A stretch of 63,896 bases of DNA, the filler included, from Rhabdomonas costata (lineage: Eukaryota): assembly GCA_019059605.1 (NCBI GenBank). It is 53 parts of 53 records of this genome, joined end to end, with 100 filler letters (N's around TTAATTAATTAA, not from the genome) between each part and the next. Parts side by side here need not be neighbours in the genome. Positions count along the whole stretch, not along the records: positions 38,649 to 39,754 come from JAHMHO010028249.1; positions 39,855 to 40,961 come from JAHMHO010028250.1; 51 more parts are not named here. The stretch is one strand, 5' to 3'. Below are positions 2,131 through 41,061 of this stretch, in pieces. Below the pieces are notes generated by a model. That model ran no database searches. It was not told where the DNA came from and was given only the letters and a program-made list of their open reading frames with translations. Position numbers and translations under genes: made by a program. Numbering within the stretch: position 1 is the stretch's first letter; each line of letters begins with the position of its first letter.

Positions 2131-2417
2131 GAAGTGCCCGGTCGTCACGACGAGACGAAAAAGGCCGATGTAGGAAGGAAAGTACTGGAGCTAGGAGAGA
2201 TGATCAGACGGCAGAACTCCTCAATTTTCACGGAACCACCTCACACCAGTAGAAGTATAGGAAAAACTCATGTGAAACTCACGTGCACCGGACAGCCATG
2301 AGTGGCTCACCCACACCNNNNNNNNNNNNNNNNNNNNNNNNNNNNNNNNNNNNNNNNNNNNTTAATTAATTAANNNNNNNNNNNNNNNNNNNNNNNNNNN
2401 NNNNNNNNNNNNNNNNN

Positions 2418-3165
2418 TGTTGTGGTGCGGGTCATCGGTGACCTGATGCGAGGTTTGGCCCCTGGGCCAACCGGCCTGAGGGCTGATCACTTGCTGCAGC
2501 TGGCAGCTTTCCAGCGGGGGAAGAACAAAGCTGCGCTCGCTGCTGCTTTGGCGTCCTTAATTAAGATGGCTCTCGCAGGGCAGATACCCGCTGATCTTGG
2601 GCGCTGGCTGTGTGCCGGGTGAGGCGTTCCGCTTCGAAAAAAGGATGGGGGTGTACACCCCCTTGTGGTGGGAGAAATTTTGCGTGCAACCATTTCTCGC
2701 TATGTTATGTTACGCTCTGAAGTTGCCGCTGCCCAGTCATTACCTGCAGGGCTTCTCTCCAGGACGGAACGGCATGCAGGCAGGCATATTTGCAGCGCGA
2801 CTGTGGGCTCAGCGAGTCATGTCGAATAAGCATCTGGTCATGGTTAAGCTGGATGTTCGCAATGCCTACAACAGTATCTCCCGTCACTACTACTGCGAGA
2901 TAGCCGACACAATTGACCCCGAACTTTCACAATGGGCACGATGGTGCATGGCCACTCCGGCGCTGCTCAGCTGCAATGGTGAGTTGGTCCTCTGTCGCAC
3001 CGGCGTGCAGCAGGGCGAGCCTCTGTCGCCGATACTCTTTTGTGCAGGCTTGGCACCGACTGTAATGGCATTGCCGAAGGGCATCCTGAGGTTGCGCAGC
3101 AATGGTACTTGGATGGCGGGCTTCTCTGTGGTGAGGTTGCCCGCGTGGCTAAGAGCCTGCCCGAT
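2418..3165 (+). mobile_element. Decayed non-LTR retrotransposon RT, CRE/SLACS/CZAR-like clade
   Basis: APGPTGLRADHL, PLRKKDGGVHPLVVGEILR, KLDVRNAYNSISR, GVQQGEPLSPILF, WYLDGG (YLDD box mutated); in-frame TGA and frameshifts. Confidence 0.88.
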
Positions 3166-3396
3166 GACGACTGCAGTCGTTGTGGTGGACAATGCCACAA
3201 CTTCAGCAACTTGGGATGAGACGCCCGAACAAACCCTTCGAGGATCCAACCACACCTCCTCCTTCCTTTCTGTCTTTCTCCCCGTTTCGAGCATGAAGGC
3301 CAGGATGATGCAATTCTCCATGTAACGTTCCTGCCTCAGCCACTTTGATACATTATTATTTCTTGCAACCGATCAGGAGCAAATTGATTACTTTCA

Positions 3397-3519
3397 GGGT
3401 AGAACTGTACAAAGCCTGTTTCTCTGTCATCCGGTCTGTTTGTCAACTTCCTTCCCACGGTTCGCCGTTGTTGCTGCTGACCGGATGACAGAGAAACAGG
3501 CTTTGTACAGTTCTACCCC
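3397..3519. repeat. Terminal fold-back inverted repeat (~41-bp arms)
   Basis: gggtagaactgtacaaagcc... is reverse complemented at the contig end. Confidence 0.8.
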
Positions 3520-3633
3520 AAAAAANNNNNNNNNNNNNNNNNNNNNNNNNNNNNNNNNNNNNNNNNNNNTTAATTAATTAANNNNNNNNNNNNNNNNNNN
3601 NNNNNNNNNNNNNNNNNNNNNNNNNTGTGGGTT

Positions 3634-3738
3634 TGCAGACCTACCGCGGGATTATGCACGGGGTGCTGTTTGTTGCTCCCACGAAGCTCTTGGGAGCAAC
3701 AAACAGCACCCCGTGCATAATCCCGCGGTAGGTCTGCA
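3634..3738. repeat. Terminal fold-back inverted repeat (~48-bp arms)
   Basis: tgcagacctaccgcggg...gctccca and its reverse complement at the contig start. Confidence 0.8.
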
Positions 3739-3808
3739 CACACACATCCACACACAAGAACGCAAACGCTTCAAGCATTACGGCTTGCGTGGCCCGATGT
3801 CATTGCAC

Positions 3809-4397
3809 CTTGTGCTCACGTTCGCTTCAGGTTGGGTGTTCACGAGGTGAACCACTGCTGTGAGCTCTACCTAAAGAAAACATTCTTATGCCAGTGGGGA
3901 AACCATATTTCGCTGTGTCTTGGCCAAGTTGTTCACTCAGCACCCCGCCACGCACGGCATTCCTCCACTGAACCCCCCAATGTCGCAAAGTCGCAAAGCA
4001 GTTTCATACACCTGCTCTCGGACAAGGACAAGCTTGAAGGAAGGAAGGGATGAAGGAAGGAAGGGATGAAGGAAGGAAGGGAAAGGGGGCTGCTGCACAA
4101 GCAGCGCCTGTGGGCGCGCGTGGGCGCCCACCTCGGGGTTGAAGGGGTACCACCAGATATTGCGCGGGATGTGGGCGGACGGAAGCATGTCCCAGTTCAC
4201 GACCTTCGCGTTGCACATCTCCCGCAGCCCAAGCACGCCGTGCTGGAGGAGGAATACCCACCATCAACACCCCCATTGGCACCCTTTTTGCAATCCAGAC
4301 ATTGAAGTCAATTTGGCGGCTGTGCTCCTGCGGCTGTTGACCGGGACTCTGCCGCAGCCGTGGCCCTTGCCGAGTCCATCCTTTACCACGCACACAC
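3809..4397 (-). CDS. Three exons (4397-4283, 4242-4132, 3870-3809) of an uncharacterised protein; includes a 40-nt GT-AG intron
   Basis: Removing gtgcca...cctccag (4282-4243) joins ...IDFNVWIAKR to HGVLGLREMCNAKVVNWDMLPSAHIPRNIWWYPFNPE in frame; polypyrimidine-AG acceptors. Confidence 0.6.
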
Positions 4398-4971
4398 CTA
4401 GAATCACAGGACGATAACCAAAACACAAAGATCCATAAGCACAGCACAAAAAGCGGCGAATGGAAATGCGTAGCACTCCGACGGTGCTCACCTCTCCCTG
4501 CACCGCTCCGGTCTACATCTCTCATGTAACCTCACCAGCTCAACAACCGGTTCCTGAAAAGAGATAAATTACTAAGTTTCAGCTGTGCGGACAAACTTTT
4601 ACAATGCAGGGAAAGACGGAGGCGACACATAGAACGGCAGGGTGCGACAGTTACAGCGCGACAGCTCACTGTTCACGTGCATCCCGCGCGTCCCCTGAAG
4701 GACGACGCAGGGCAGGGCGGCAGCCACACCCCCNNNNNNNNNNNNNNNNNNNNNNNNNNNNNNNNNNNNNNNNNNNNTTAATTAATTAANNNNNNNNNNN
4801 NNNNNNNNNNNNNNNNNNNNNNNNNNNNNNNNNGGTTTTTGGTCCGCTTGGAAAAAGAAGAGCTTTTCCCAACAGAAGCACCGCTCTTGTTCAACGCTGT
4901 GATGCACGCACCATTCCTATGGTATCTCATTAAAAGAGAACAAAGCTAAGGCAATTGGCCCCGAGGCCCAC

Positions 4972-5219
4972 CTCTCCAGGCCATGTGCCGGCGGATCTGG
5001 TGGTGTCGTCCCGTGTGCAGCTGCAGCCCCACCCTGGACACGTCCGCCACAGGTTCGGCTCCCTCGAAACAGCTGCGCCGAAGCGGGATGAGGGTGGTCT
5101 TGGCAGGCAGCGGAGTGCGATGCGATTGCCCTGGCCTGCGGTGCCACACGGGCTGGGTGATCTCCTCGGGAGCCACAACATTCCCGAACAGCAGGGCAAT
5201 GTACAGCTTGTCATCAACG
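4972..5219 (-). CDS. Internal exon, RluA/RPUSD-family RNA pseudouridine synthase
   Basis: KLYIALLFG...AKTTL...SRVGLQLHTGRHHQIRRHMAWRG matches RluA KxYxA and TGRxHQIRxH motifs; flanked by ctgcag and GT. Confidence 0.85.
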
Positions 5220-6980
5220 CTGCAGCGGTGCGAGGCAGATATGGAAAATCAGCCTCGAGGGTGACAGTTGGAGATAAACGAGGACCCGAACATGAAAGAG
5301 TAGTGTTTTATTCCAGAGCTGTGTTTTTGGGATAGCGGCAAACAGAGACGAACACGAAGCAGTCCGAGTACCACAAATGAAACAGCTGGGAAGGAGACCG
5401 AGGTACCTTCTTTCATTGTGAGGTCGAGCCGTAGCGTACGCTCGAAAATGGAAAGGGTAGGGGGCTCCAAAGAATGACGCAATTGTGTCGAAGGTGGAAG
5501 GCGGGCACGGTATGAGAGAAGGGGATGTTCGGCCGATGTGGTAAGCCTCGCTCATTCGCCTCAATCGAAGGTCATGCCTTGATGGGGAATCACAGTGGTT
5601 TACAGAAGAGAGCAAGGGTGTATCATGTCGCAGTGGTCCAAGATGTCAAGTGCGTGAAGCACAAGAACGAGGCAAAAAGAAAAGAGTGAGATAGGAAGTA
5701 GGAAAAGAACTGGGAGACGACTGGTGGGGTAACTGAAATGTATATGTGTGCTGGTTGTTGCTGGTGACAGCTGTGGACTGTTGGGCGCACGCGCAATTGG
5801 CCACGAAGCCTCGCGAGAGGTAGGTTGAGGTGGTTGCGGTTCTAGCCCTTCGCATTCTTCCCAGCAAGAAGAAATGCCCCACACCAGATCCCAAGGGACC
5901 CCAAGCTCCCTGCACCCCCCAACCCCAAACACACCCACCACNNNNNNNNNNNNNNNNNNNNNNNNNNNNNNNNNNNNNNNNNNNNTTAATTAATTAANNN
6001 NNNNNNNNNNNNNNNNNNNNNNNNNNNNNNNNNNNNNNNNNGAGCACGCCGAAACCTTTCCTGGCTCATTACAAAACGGCAGTCAGAAATGGGATTTCAA
6101 CGGCAAAACAAAAACTCGAATGAAATCTGCCGCACACACACGCTCACACACCAAGACCTGGAAGGCAGACCAACAACCGAACCAAACCGAACCACCAGAA
6201 CCGCGCCGCCTCTCGGTATCTTCTCTGGGTCTAATTCGCAAACATCCCCCATATTTTTGTACAAGAAAATTCGAAAAGTTACGAATAAGTTTTGAAACAC
6301 CAAAAACTCAAACCGGAGCTGTTTTGACCTCAGAGAAACAGGTTTGCTGCCAAGGTTGGGAGGCGGCATTCACTTGAAGTGAAGCAAGCAACAAAATCAC
6401 AGACAGAAGCAGAAACAGAAACAGAAAGTCCTTTCGGGTGACCCGCCGGCTCAGGCCTTATCGGCTACGCCATACGGCATACGGAAGGTGCCGAGACCTG
6501 CAGGTAGGCAAAAGGTCTCCAAAACATCTGGGTACCTAGCAATTGAACTTCGCCACATTTGCTGGCTCTGTGCACGTGTTCGGATGCGCTGAAAATTCCG
6601 GAGCGTTTCGGGAAGTACGCAAAATACGCAGAAATGCAAAGAGAAGAATGAGAAAGAAATAACGAAATGTGGTGATCCCTACGATACATCCTCTCTTCCC
6701 AACCTGCGTATGCCAGCTACAGCGCTTGGGGCTCCAGTTTTTAGCATTCGTCGGACAACAGTCGACGTACTTCAGGCACCCAATCCTCGTTTTCAGCAGA
6801 TGGAGAGCGCCGATTTAAGACACTTCGTGGGGTCATTTTCAGTGTGAGTACCCCAAACACGACCTCACGAGTGTGCGAAAACTCCAGCAGAGACAGAGGC
6901 CATATGACCCGAAAATGGAGCAATGCGATTCCATGGATGCTGCACTGGAATTGTTTTGCTATTCTGCTGTTGCTGCATAG

Positions 6981-38679: not shown

Positions 38680-39742
38680 GCCACCCAGGGGATTGCCGCG
38701 GAGGTCGAGACTAAGCTCAGTAAGGCGGCAGAGTCTAGAAACGCAAGCGACGATCGGCATGGTCTCGTCGCCAAGGTCGTTGAACCCCAGGTCAAGTTTC
38801 AGGGAGGTTAGGGTGGGGATCTGAGAGGTCAGGCGGACAACATGAGAGGGGAAGAAAGGTGAAAAGACAGAAAGGAGAGATGACTCTTCGGTGAAATATT
38901 CCACTGGTAAGTGGAAAAAAGGCAGTGGTCTAGTTTCAGTTATATTTACCATCTAATAACCAAGAAGACCGTTTGCTCGAAAGGAGAGACGAGAATGAGA
39001 CCTCCTGGTCGATCCCTATCCATGTGCGACACCGAAGGAAACCGGACGAATCACTCTACTTCTATACCTTATCTCCACGTTGTTTTCCATGAGATTTTAA
39101 CTCCTCTGGCCACCCACTCATCAGCATCCTGAACACTTGTCTGCAGGTAACATGCCTCCAACACACTCTGCCCCACAATGCTGTGAGATATTTTAGCAGT
39201 ATATCATTCAGAGTTCTGAACACGACCTGAGTAAGCGTCCGGAAGAATCCCAAGGAGGCTCCGCTGAGCTGGTTCGCCTGCAGGCTTAGAGCGAGGCTCT
39301 GCAGACTTGAGAATCCTGCCATCACAGACAGCTCCTCCAGCGCCTCCACAGGGCCCAGGTCACAGTCATTCAGGCTGAGCTCCAGGGTAGTCAACCCAGT
39401 CAGCGAGCCCAGCAGAGAGAGGTCTGGCACACTAGTGCGGTGGTGGTCCAGGGTAATGCTCAGGCAGCGCAGAGAAGGCGGGCACACCGGGAGCCATGAG
39501 AACAGCCTGGGAATGGAGAAGCCCAGCAGGTGGCTTACTGCAAATCTTGCGGAGTATACCTCCCGGCCACAGAGCATCAGCAGAGTCTCGTCCGGGGGAA
39601 CGGAGGTGCAGCTCAGGTGCCTCCAGTGCACGGAGGCGCGCCACAACTGGCACACCAGACACATCTGTCGGGTCAGCGCGAAGCTGTGAATCAGCTGCAG
39701 AAGCTCAGGGGGTAGGGTGGTAATTGAGGGGGGCTTCGCCAT
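38680..39742 (-). CDS. F-box + leucine-rich-repeat protein (exons ~39742-39227 and ~38820-38680)
   Basis: ITTLPPELLQLIHSF...MCLVCQLWR F-box; LRRs LTTLELSLNDCDLG, LQSLALSLQANQLS, LTSLKLDLGFNDLG, LTELSLDLRGNPL. Confidence 0.85.
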
Positions 39743-40367
39743 CCTCCCCACAAANNNNNNNNNNNNNNNNNNNNNNNNNNNNNNNNNNNNNNNNNNNNTT
39801 AATTAATTAANNNNNNNNNNNNNNNNNNNNNNNNNNNNNNNNNNNNNNNNNNNNGGATTCAGGACCAGCCTAAAGTACATTCTGAGAATTCATATCAGAA
39901 GAGAACTGAAAGCGGGAGCTTGGTTGATCCCATGCCTGTCTCTCTTAACAGATGCCACTAGCAAAAGAAATGCTTTTTCTTGCGGTTCTTTTGCATTTTA
40001 GGTAGCATTGCTTCTGTGGGGTCAGTTTCTGTCTGCGAAAATTAAAAGGCGCTCTTTTGGGTCTGATTTGCAAATTTCAGGTGCACTCTTTGACAACTAA
40101 TTTGCAAAATACAGTTGAAACTAGCCCCCCCACCCCGAAACGGATTTATGTGGTACGTATGATAGCACTTTGTTGCTGTCTTTCTCTCTAATCAAACAGG
40201 TTATTTTGATCAGTTGTGTGTTGTGTTCAGCTGTACAATCTCAACTATGCACTGTGCAGCAATTTTGCAACATATGGCGGGTCGCATAAACGTCAAACAG
40301 CTATGGGCGAGCCCAACGTGTGGAGAAATCATGAGGAGCATAGCTGCAAGAGGCACAAGGGTCATAC

Positions 40368-40569
40368 CTGTGGGGTGGATGCAGTAACGAGTCACCCCAA
40401 CCACGGCGTCATCCAAACCAAGATCGGCAAGAAGTTCGGTGAGGCTGGGCACCAAGCTGATCACGCGCTTAGGGGCTGCCGCCAAAGTTAGAGCGCGTCC
40501 CCGCGCGTCGACCATGGATAGCGGAAACCCTTGCCCCGCGCTCATTCGTAAAGCGACAAAGCGTCTCAT
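40368..40569 (-). CDS. First exon of a BtuF/TroA-like (cobalamin or Fe-siderophore) substrate-binding protein
   Basis: DARGRALTLAAAPKRVISLVPSLTELLADLGLDDAVVGVTRYCIHP is the canonical N-terminus of bacterial helical-backbone metal receptors; similarity stops at CAG|GTATGA. Confidence 0.85.
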
Positions 40570-41061
40570 AAAGACAAAGGGTAACAACCTACGACAAAAT
40601 AATTAAACAAACAGTGCACAGCCCCGATGCATCATAGGTATCTGTCACGGGTGAACGCGCAGAGGAGAGTAAATAGGGTGACCTCAAAACGTAGTCTGGT
40701 TAATGCAATGGTGACGAGTATGATGATAAGGGCAAAAAACCGCAGAACAATACAGTACCAAAGGCTCGAGTACCAAACAAAGGCAGCAAGGCAAATCGCA
40801 GGGGTTGCAAAGAGCATTAAACACGCAAAGCATCATGTGCGCCTATTGAGTTCCAAGTGAGTGACCTCCACACTGAACCCCTTCTCCTCGAGGGCGCGCC
40901 GAGCGGCCTCCACGACAGCAACGCTGCGGTGGTGACCCCCCATACAGTTGACACACACACANNNNNNNNNNNNNNNNNNNNNNNNNNNNNNNNNNNNNNN
41001 NNNNNTTAATTAATTAANNNNNNNNNNNNNNNNNNNNNNNNNNNNNNNNNNNNNNNNNNNN

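Follow-up and report, generated by a model that had tools for sequence, protein, structure and literature searches.

The window analysed here is a 63,896-base stretch of DNA assigned to Rhabdomonas costata, which 52 identical linkers (N...TTAATTAATTAA...N) divide into 53 pieces of 1104-1110 bp each. The gene under study, which encodes a binding protein, is confined to one of these pieces, the 1107 bp between positions 39855 and 40961. On the minus strand of this piece, positions 40368-40569 are best explained, and in our judgement likely so, as the first coding exon of a nuclear, bacterially derived gene in an osmotrophic euglenid, the gene whose product is listed as RCo050945. The DNA of the window most likely comes from R. 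costata or a very close relative.

First exon, donor site and transcript

The coding part of exon 1 (40368..40569, minus strand) starts with the ATG at 40569-40567 and runs through codon 67 to the initial base of codon 68, a Gly codon. Its product has a basic extension (residues 1 to about 14), followed by the first beta-hairpin and the start of the N-terminal lobe of a Peripla_BP_2/TroA-like protein. In a tblastn search of the whole window, the exon was identical in 68 of 68 residues to residues 1-68 of the EukProt protein RCo050945 (277 residues, PF01497). The stop-to-stop open reading frame (ORF) that contains it, 40210..40602 on the minus strand, reads ...MRRFVALRMSAGQGFPLSMVDARGRALTLAAAPKRVISLVPSLTELLADLGLDDAVVGVTRYCIHPTG... 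and continues into unrelated sequence. Divergence from RCo050945 begins at residue 69, where GWN of the protein is GMT in the genomic frame, so that the family-invariant Trp69 is a Met in the read-through. The first-pass annotation had given the gene as the interval 40210..40620; the exon on the minus strand stands, and positions 40210-40367 are read-through into the intron and not coding.

Used as a query, the 69-residue peptide from this frame had RCo050945 as its top match (E 5.2e-35, 99% identity over 69 residues), and its top bacterial match reached E 7e-15 at 73% identity. At E<=1e-3 it matched 45 proteins in a large protein collection, 43 of which carried PF01497 in a precomputed column, and it also matched the solved class-III binding proteins 4hn9 (E 1.4e-4) and 4mlz (E 3.7e-3). 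Pfam returned no family at E<=1 for the window ORF alone, since the window covers the domain for about 33 residues only; recognition by Pfam requires the full transcript-derived protein.

The match to RCo050945 runs without mismatch to 40368, and the GT of a 5' splice site (40366..40367, minus strand; ACAG/GTATGA) comes next. Similarity to all bacterial relatives ends at the same exon end, which bears out the earlier statement that it stops precisely at a CAG/GTATGA donor. The site would open an intron of phase 1 that splits codon 68 behind its first base; all 29 complete introns examined in six genes of R. costata were of the GT/AG type (PMC8219788). The 5' part of this putative intron 1 (39855..40367, minus strand) measures at least 513 nt and runs off the contig end, with a guanine-plus-cytosine (GC) content of 0.44 and 7-10 stops per frame. 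Exon 1 has a GC content of 0.60 (0.63 at third codon positions), dropping to 0.44-0.45 in the intron and in the spacer upstream of the gene. The read-through ORF past the donor had no Pfam match.

The RCo prefix denotes transcript-derived proteins of Rhabdomonas costata, obtained with Trinity and TransDecoder from three polyA-selected libraries (PMC8219788). RCo050945 occupies row 911 of Table S8 of that study (supplementary file 6, the predicted mitochondrial proteome), where it is assigned to KEGG K02016, iron complex transport system substrate-binding protein, with a Bacteroidetes bacterium as best NCBI match (E 9.6e-75) and with the flags 'Splice leader present' Y and 'First hit prokaryote' Y (PMC8219788). 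The leader flag stands for a partial leader of at least 10 nt at the transcript end (PMC8219788), and the 3' end of the spliced leader is …CATTTTTTCG. The 10-nt partial leader, with at most one mismatch, was found nine times in the window and not once inside 39855-40961. A full-length mRNA bearing a spliced leader, seen beside a genomic copy whose frame breaks off at a GT donor, is the picture expected of a nuclear intron-containing gene. Both features had been proposed earlier. The intron is probably real, given the complete 277-residue protein and the consensus donor at which the genome leaves its frame, and trans-splicing agrees with the mark of the transcript as spliced-leader-bearing in the published Table S8 (PMC8219788).

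The gene entry itself is not new, as RCo050945 is already in the public protein set and in the published supplementary table, where it stands without comment. The main texts of PMC8219788 and PMC7403612 make no mention of 'periplasm', 'substrate-binding' or 'cobalamin'. A literature search that combined periplasmic binding protein and horizontal gene transfer with euglenid or PF01497 gave nothing relevant among the papers listed, as judged by titles and the starts of abstracts.

Upstream of the exon, a T-rich stretch ...aattattttgtcgtag ends at 40589, 19 nt ahead of the ATG at 40569-40567, which confirms the T-rich tract that had been placed about 20 nt before the start codon. Its final AG (40590-40589), preceded by ...tttgtttaattattttgtcgtag, is the candidate acceptor for the spliced leader and the nearest upstream AG to the ATG, and the putative 5' untranslated region of 19 nt (40570..40588, minus strand) has no further AG inside. 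The T-rich spacer (40589..40832, minus strand) extends from the stop codon of an upstream ORF to this candidate acceptor. Over the 243 nt of 40590-40832 the T fraction is 0.39, compared with 0.24 in the exon, and the GC content is 0.45; on both strands the spacer had no Pfam match.

The upstream ORF is the end of a separate neighbour gene (40833..40961, minus strand), of which the last 42 codons and the TGA are present and the remainder is cut by the contig end. It encodes a RapZ C-terminal domain (PF22740 at 36.9 bits, gathering score 27; NF003828 at E 3.1e-6) of prokaryote type with a CX5R-like NCMGGHHRS motif. It shares the strand of the binding-protein gene, whose ATG follows 264 bp downstream, and its GC content of 0.61 is similar to that of exon 1. 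The RapZ-like fragment had 16 representative matches at 41-61% identity, with PF22740 in 14 of the 15 that were scanned; in these relatives PF22740 is often the sole domain, in proteins of 80-165 residues. No match to the RapZ-like ORF was found in EukProt at E<=0.01, and neither RapZ nor four synonyms are mentioned in those supplements of PMC8219788 that were examined. Conserved rapZ-troA synteny in bacteria would have indicated a block transfer or a bacterial contig; the 42-residue fragment had no match at E<=1 in 80 bacterial loci, a search whose sensitivity is limited by the short query. The RapZ-like ORF may be a second acquired gene.

Seven other ORFs of the piece 39855-40961, on both strands, were scanned and gave no family above threshold, and comparison of the piece with the rest of the window returned the self-match only, with no repeat copy. 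The piece is bounded by the artificial linker N...TTAATTAATTAA...N at 39755..39854 (unstranded), beyond which lies an unrelated contig, and likewise by that at 40962-41061. Because the window consists of 53 joined separate contigs, arguments from neighbours past the limits of a piece are void. This applies to the earlier argument from the lack of flanking permease and ATPase genes, as the piece that holds the gene spans only 1.1 kb (39855-40961). In the adjoining contig, a long open frame at 39062-39754 (minus strand; 246 residues, partly across the linker) has a start resembling an F-box and sequence resembling leucine-rich repeats, and represents an unrelated gene fragment of eukaryote type.

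Probable bacterial origin and the donor family

A similarity search of a large collection (5.8 billion clusters) returned 7918 matches, of which the best 120 were listed; these 120 leave room for more distant eukaryotic relatives. Among them, RCo050945 itself was the sole entry from the eukaryote set, and all others were bacterial or metagenomic proteins at most 61% identical to it, with Rhodothermales, Rhodothermaceae, Rubricoccaceae, Bacteroidota, Sphingobacteriales and Myxococcota as named sources. In 185,579 species genomes, the 80 top-ranking loci were 43-59% identical and belonged mainly to Bacteroidota and Rhodothermota, and the nearest Atlas clusters were 100% Bacteria. Near-identity to a bacterial genome, an earlier concern, was seen neither among the best 120 of the 7918 matches (closest 61%) nor in the species genomes (closest 59%).

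For a tree of 78 rows, 35 collection proteins and 24 named loci were joined to the query, together with 18 more distant rows as outgroups, all picked by hand out of 160 proteins and 80 loci; the tree was computed by an IQ-TREE quick search under LG+C20, with SH-aLRT as the only support measure. RCo050945 fell inside a 60-row bacterial clade with SH-aLRT 100, on an end branch of 0.58 substitutions per site. This nesting, together with the 61% identity of the nearest bacterial protein among the best 120 of 7918, supports the earlier claim of horizontal acquisition. The protein keeps 65 of the 69 columns that are invariant in 24 bacterial rows and 70 of the 72 columns that are at least 95% conserved in the 120 close relatives, the two changes being V/I and F/Y. 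RCo050945 is therefore still under the constraints of the family.

The closest group consists of Rhodothermota/Bacteroidota proteins that lack a signal peptide (NF038402; for instance P0002, P0047 and P0048 from Rhodocaloribacter sp.). They are collinear with RCo050945 over the full length, 59-61% identical, and have the same C-terminal end. The motifs TR[FY]C.HP..W, GGTK, EEN, SSEPYPF and FSWYGSR are common to both, whereas the euglenid gene is set apart by its putative intron, the spliced leader flagged for its transcript and a basic N-terminal addition of about 14 residues.

The bacterial members of this family do not look like transport receptors. None of the 120 close relatives has a hydrophobic N-terminal run of at least 7 residues, and 108 of the 120 have at most 30 residues before the RIVSL motif; in RCo050945 the longest hydrophobic run before this motif is 4 residues. 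The outgroup protein P0035 shows a classic signal peptide. At 20 loci, with three ORFs per side, Pfam found FecCD, ABC_tran, TonB-receptor/BtuB, BtuCD-type or cobalamin-pathway domains in none of the 120 neighbouring ORFs. A search with Rfam gathering thresholds detected no cobalamin riboswitch at 22 bacterial loci of about 12.7 kb each, the only hits being 4 tRNAs. As for domain fusions, the 5 longer relatives carry PF01497 only. A long ORF at locus L015 was set aside as a high-GC start-codon artefact beside a Mur-ligase-like gene, by resemblance to L002. The lack of a signal peptide and of neighbouring transporter genes suggests that the bacterial protein is a soluble cytoplasmic ligand binder and not a transport receptor. 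The observation in the first-pass annotation that the euglenid protein has no bacterial signal peptide thus holds, and its interpretation changes: this is an inherited trait of the donor family (0 of 120) and not a eukaryotic adaptation.

One gene recurs near the bacterial relatives. A PALP+CBS (cystathionine-beta-synthase-like) gene occurs within three genes upstream in 10 of the 20 loci, all from Bacteroidota (L009, L010, L012, L013, L017, L021, L023, L025, L037 and L076, at about 2150-6030 in each). Its stop codon overlaps the start of the binding-protein gene in L076, and a gap of 16 nt separates the two genes in L010, so that the pair possibly forms an operon. None of the Rhodothermota, Cytophagales and Saprospirales loci has the PALP+CBS gene, and we read the arrangement as lineage synteny and not as a functional link.

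These observations are best explained by a history in which the gene came by horizontal transfer from a Rhodothermota/Bacteroidota-type bacterium. Its donor family is one of small binders (about 265 residues) with the BtuF/haem-receptor fold, without signal peptide or neighbouring transporter genes. In the euglenid the gene would have gained a minimum of one GT intron, in phase 1 behind base 40368, and a T-rich upstream region, with the spliced leader most likely added at the AG at 40590-40589. It would also have gained about 14 basic N-terminal residues, MRRFVALRMSAGQG, most likely a short mitochondrial presequence.

Several points weigh against this account. The splice junction, the acceptor and the continuity of the DNA across 40367 are putative, and exon 2 was not found in the window by tblastn of RCo050945 against all contigs (word size 2, E<=10). 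The leader flag and the targeting scores are entries in another group's table, the flag resting on a 10-nt partial leader (PMC8219788). The same study reported bacteria in both its DNA and RNA preparations and noted that prokaryote-affiliated proteins may be contaminants (PMC8219788), and the 'nonconventional intron' candidates of its Table S5 include a transcript and a contig of Escherichia coli BtuB (PMC8219788). RCo050945 entered Table S8 via an OrthoMCL 'orthologue', Euglena gracilis EG_transcript_25510 (PMC8219788), and by eye this transcript (PMC7403612 supplement) belongs to another Peripla_BP_2 subfamily. The bacterial neighbourhoods at the 20 loci give no consistent functional clue. 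Finally, the tree gives RCo050945 no supported place within the 60-row clade, and the donor can be narrowed down no further than the Rhodothermota/Bacteroidota group.

Bacterial sequence is thus present in both R. costata data sets, as the BtuB entries of Table S5 illustrate (PMC8219788).

One alternative would be that RCo050945 derives from an unsampled bacterium of the culture and that the contig is a chimera of bacterial and euglenid DNA joined at 40367. Besides the bacteria in the published DNA and RNA, the amplification of the DNA before sequencing (PMC8219788) speaks for such an artefact, as does the second prokaryote-type ORF, the RapZ C-terminal domain that precedes the ATG by 264 bp in the same orientation. 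A chimera would need to break exactly on a consensus AG/GTATGA donor, however, and the transcript is flagged as bearing a spliced leader that the contig does not encode. The surroundings of the start codon argue in the same direction: no Shine-Dalgarno-like purine run occurs in the 19 nt before the ATG, and the 243-nt spacer is T-rich and without ORF matches, unlike dense bacterial DNA. The bacterial relatives lack the N-terminal extension, and no bacterium came closer than the identity ceilings given above (61% among the best 120 of 7918 from 5.8 billion clusters, 59% in 185,579 species genomes). We consider this artefact extremely improbable.

Only slightly less improbable is that the contig carries a dead or partial duplicate, consisting of exon 1 only, of an expressed gene elsewhere in the genome. 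Exon 1 is indeed all that the window contains of this gene, and the next 513 nt hold no further coding piece; an intron of more than 513 nt suffices to explain this, and a decayed copy is at odds with the intact ATG and donor and with an exon that matches the expressed protein in 68 of 68 residues. Altogether, we regard it as very likely that the gene is nuclear, real and horizontally transferred.

N-terminal extension and cellular location

The extra residues of RCo050945 (MRRFVALRMSAGQG, about 14) contain three Arg and no acidic residue and stand ahead of the first strand. They are missing in the bacterial relatives and have low confidence in the structural model. Short presequences of euglenozoans resemble an extension of this kind in having Arg and no acidic residue, and this extension most likely acts as a short mitochondrial presequence. 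Table S8 gives a TargetP score of 0.957 and a MitoFates score of 0.621 for the protein (PMC8219788). The mitochondrial destination suggested in the first-pass annotation is thus in line with these predictions and with the basic, low-confidence extension, as a predicted location only, and on this basis we lean towards it.

The experimental side is weak. EG_transcript_25510 is listed in purified-mitochondria data with a CP/MT value of 0 (PMC7403612). By eye, it has QDICKVCS in place of EEN, SPCGYD in place of SSEPYPF and FNRPGPR in place of FSWYGSR. Three R. costata proteins map to this transcript in Table S8 (PMC8219788), and two of them, RCo003946 and RCo019362 (rows 865 and 868), have eukaryotic best matches, a 'C1orf53 homolog' and a fungal protein (PMC8219788). 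The OrthoMCL group is therefore one at the level of the family. What EG_transcript_25510, RCo003946 and RCo019362 share with RCo050945 is the Pfam-level family by annotation, the K02016 assignment and the OrthoMCL group; set apart by eye and by annotation, they are probably a separate, older eukaryotic lineage of the receptor fold. Literature on 'C1orf53' contained nothing relevant among the matches listed, as far as titles and the starts of abstracts tell. We rejected the E. gracilis 'orthologue' as proof of a mitochondrial location, as by eye it is of another subfamily and is common to three R. costata proteins.

With this link removed, a gene that is nuclear and real may still have a cytosolic product, as in the donor bacteria; the extension would then have arisen only because translation begins at a new codon. 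In favour of this are the cytoplasmic nature of the bacterial family, the fact that the sole experimental connection with mitochondria runs through a non-equivalent E. gracilis protein, and a MitoFates score of only 0.621. The TargetP score of 0.957 and an extension with three Arg, no acidic residue and low model confidence point the other way, and we judge the cytosolic alternative rather unlikely.

Fold, ligand and meaning

RCo050945 scored 162.7 bits against NF038402 (TroA_like, 'helical backbone metal receptor'; cutoff 30) and 60.8 bits against PF01497 (Peripla_BP_2; cutoff 27.5), above the cutoff in both cases. Against the BtuF equivalog NF002894, which has a cutoff of 234 bits, it reached 74.8 bits and its bacterial relative P0002 74.5 bits, both below. 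A profile of RCo050945 and 24 relatives found 4m7o first (E 7e-29), an entry annotated only as a 'possible' iron-binding protein, and BtuF entries next (E about 1e-17), so that BtuF is the closest functionally characterised relative by profile.

An AF2 model of RCo050945 based on 146 sequences had a mean per-residue confidence (pLDDT) of 95.6 and a predicted template-modelling (pTM) score of 0.91, with residues 1-10 averaging a pLDDT of 58. It shows two Rossmann-like lobes linked by a single rigid helix, as in BtuF. In a Foldseek search with this model BtuF came out on top (5ysc at E 1.4e-18; 1n2z with a target-normalised TM score of 0.84), with the haem binders BhuT, PhuT, ShuT and HmuT close behind. 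BtuF of E. coli and Vibrio cholerae (1n2z, 5ysc) and RCo050945 thus have the same two-lobed fold with one long helix, at target-normalised TM scores of 0.79-0.88 and 21-25% identity. Unlike BtuF, RCo050945 has no signal peptide, and no BtuCD partner or B12 regulatory RNA lies near its relatives. The fold matches to the haem binders BhuT, ShuT, PhuT and HmuT (5giz, 2r7a, 2r79, 3md9; E 5e-17 to 1e-15) are nearly equal to that to BtuF; these proteins are 16-23% identical to RCo050945 and, unlike it, are secreted transport receptors.

At the level of residues, the profile alignment pairs Pro31, Ala32 and Tyr50 of BtuF with P41, S42 and Y62 of RCo050945. In the alignment to 5m3b (the W66L variant), the Trp66 position of BtuF pairs with the family-invariant Thr79 of GGTK; the presumed place of Trp66 in 5m3b is taken from the title of the entry and from the wild-type sequence. 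All four BtuF residues are ones that we take to be B12 contacts. RCo050945 also has an invariant Cys63/His65 pair in a cleft loop whose counterpart in the alignment is BtuF residues 51-53, and judging from the alignment these two residues could serve as axial ligands for a metal or a metallo-tetrapyrrole. The description of the protein as BtuF-like in the first-pass annotation is therefore apt for its fold and its best Foldseek match. It does not extend to identity with BtuF, which is ruled out by the equivalog score of 74.8 against 234 bits and by the loss of Trp66 to Thr79.

Since nearly all positions conserved in the family are kept, the euglenid protein would most likely do the same job as in the donor, presumably the binding of a small ligand in the cleft between the two lobes. 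By kinship of the modelled fold, that the ligand is a tetrapyrrole or a metal chelate seems to us an even call, and that it is cobalamin specifically seems unlikely. Nothing found favours B12 over haem or another chelate.

The idea of a mitochondrial B12 route, in which RCo050945 would bind cobalamin and hand it, for example, to an adenosyltransferase and methylmalonyl-CoA mutase, deserves separate consideration. BtuF is the closest characterised relative by profile (E about 1e-17) as well as the best Foldseek match, and Pro31, Ala32 and Tyr50, presumed contact residues, align with P41, S42 and Y62. The predicted mitochondrial proteome of R. costata contains methylmalonyl-CoA mutase, two MMAB-type adenosyltransferases and an MMAA homologue (PMC8219788). 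Cobalamin must therefore reach the organelle. The algal CBA1 provides a precedent, as a eukaryotic protein with a BtuF-like predicted fold and a role in B12 uptake and handling (PMC10828217). By its description, CBA1 shows 'little sequence similarity' to BtuF, carries a signal peptide, is located in the endoplasmic reticulum and is the larger protein, with a model covering residues 21-490 (PMC10828217), whereas RCo050945 has a plainly bacterial sequence, 277 residues and a mitochondrial-type N-terminus.

Against a role in B12 handling stand the NF002894 score of 74.8 bits where 234 are required, the invariant Thr79 of GGTK at the place of Trp66, and the bacterial loci, where cobalamin riboswitches (0 of 22 loci) and cobalamin, BtuB or BtuCD-type neighbours (0 of 20 loci) were lacking. 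Haem binders fit the fold almost equally well, and the automatic names of the relatives are inconsistent, ranging from 'iron ABC transporter' and 'helical backbone metal receptor' to 'cobalamin-binding protein'. With equivalog score, Trp66, riboswitches and neighbourhoods all neutral or negative, the B12 handling route put forward in the first-pass annotation is not supported, and we hold it to be improbable. The B12 physiology of Euglena, to which the same proposal appealed, is an analogy only, the organism being an osmotrophic euglenid of the Rhabdomonas type. Cobalamin-binding proteins in Euglena organelles have reportedly been described in older biochemical work; a literature search on Euglena, cobalamin-binding protein and mitochondria found nothing.

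More specific still, and in our view even less probable, would be a captured cytoplasmic protein of the BtuF/haem-receptor fold that is now a carrier of cobalamin or another tetrapyrrole in the mitochondrial matrix, supplying two enzymes of the wax-ester pathway, methylmalonyl-CoA mutase and the adenosyltransferase.

Acquisition of genes by horizontal transfer is frequent in euglenids, and the present gene already stands in a published table, so the value of the case is modest. It indicates that a bacterial-looking gene in a contaminated, fragmented protist assembly is provable as nuclear from one exon-intron boundary combined with an existing transcript. It is also a well-supported example of a soluble binding protein that a eukaryote has taken over from bacteria, probably for use in the mitochondrion, and draws attention to a widespread bacterial family of the receptor fold that has neither signal peptide nor transporter. 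Should the ligand be cobalamin, the protein would bear on the handling of B12 inside mitochondria. If the matrix carrier were true, it would represent a step of organellar cofactor trafficking without counterpart in animals or fungi, and it would reveal the function of a large orphan bacterial family.

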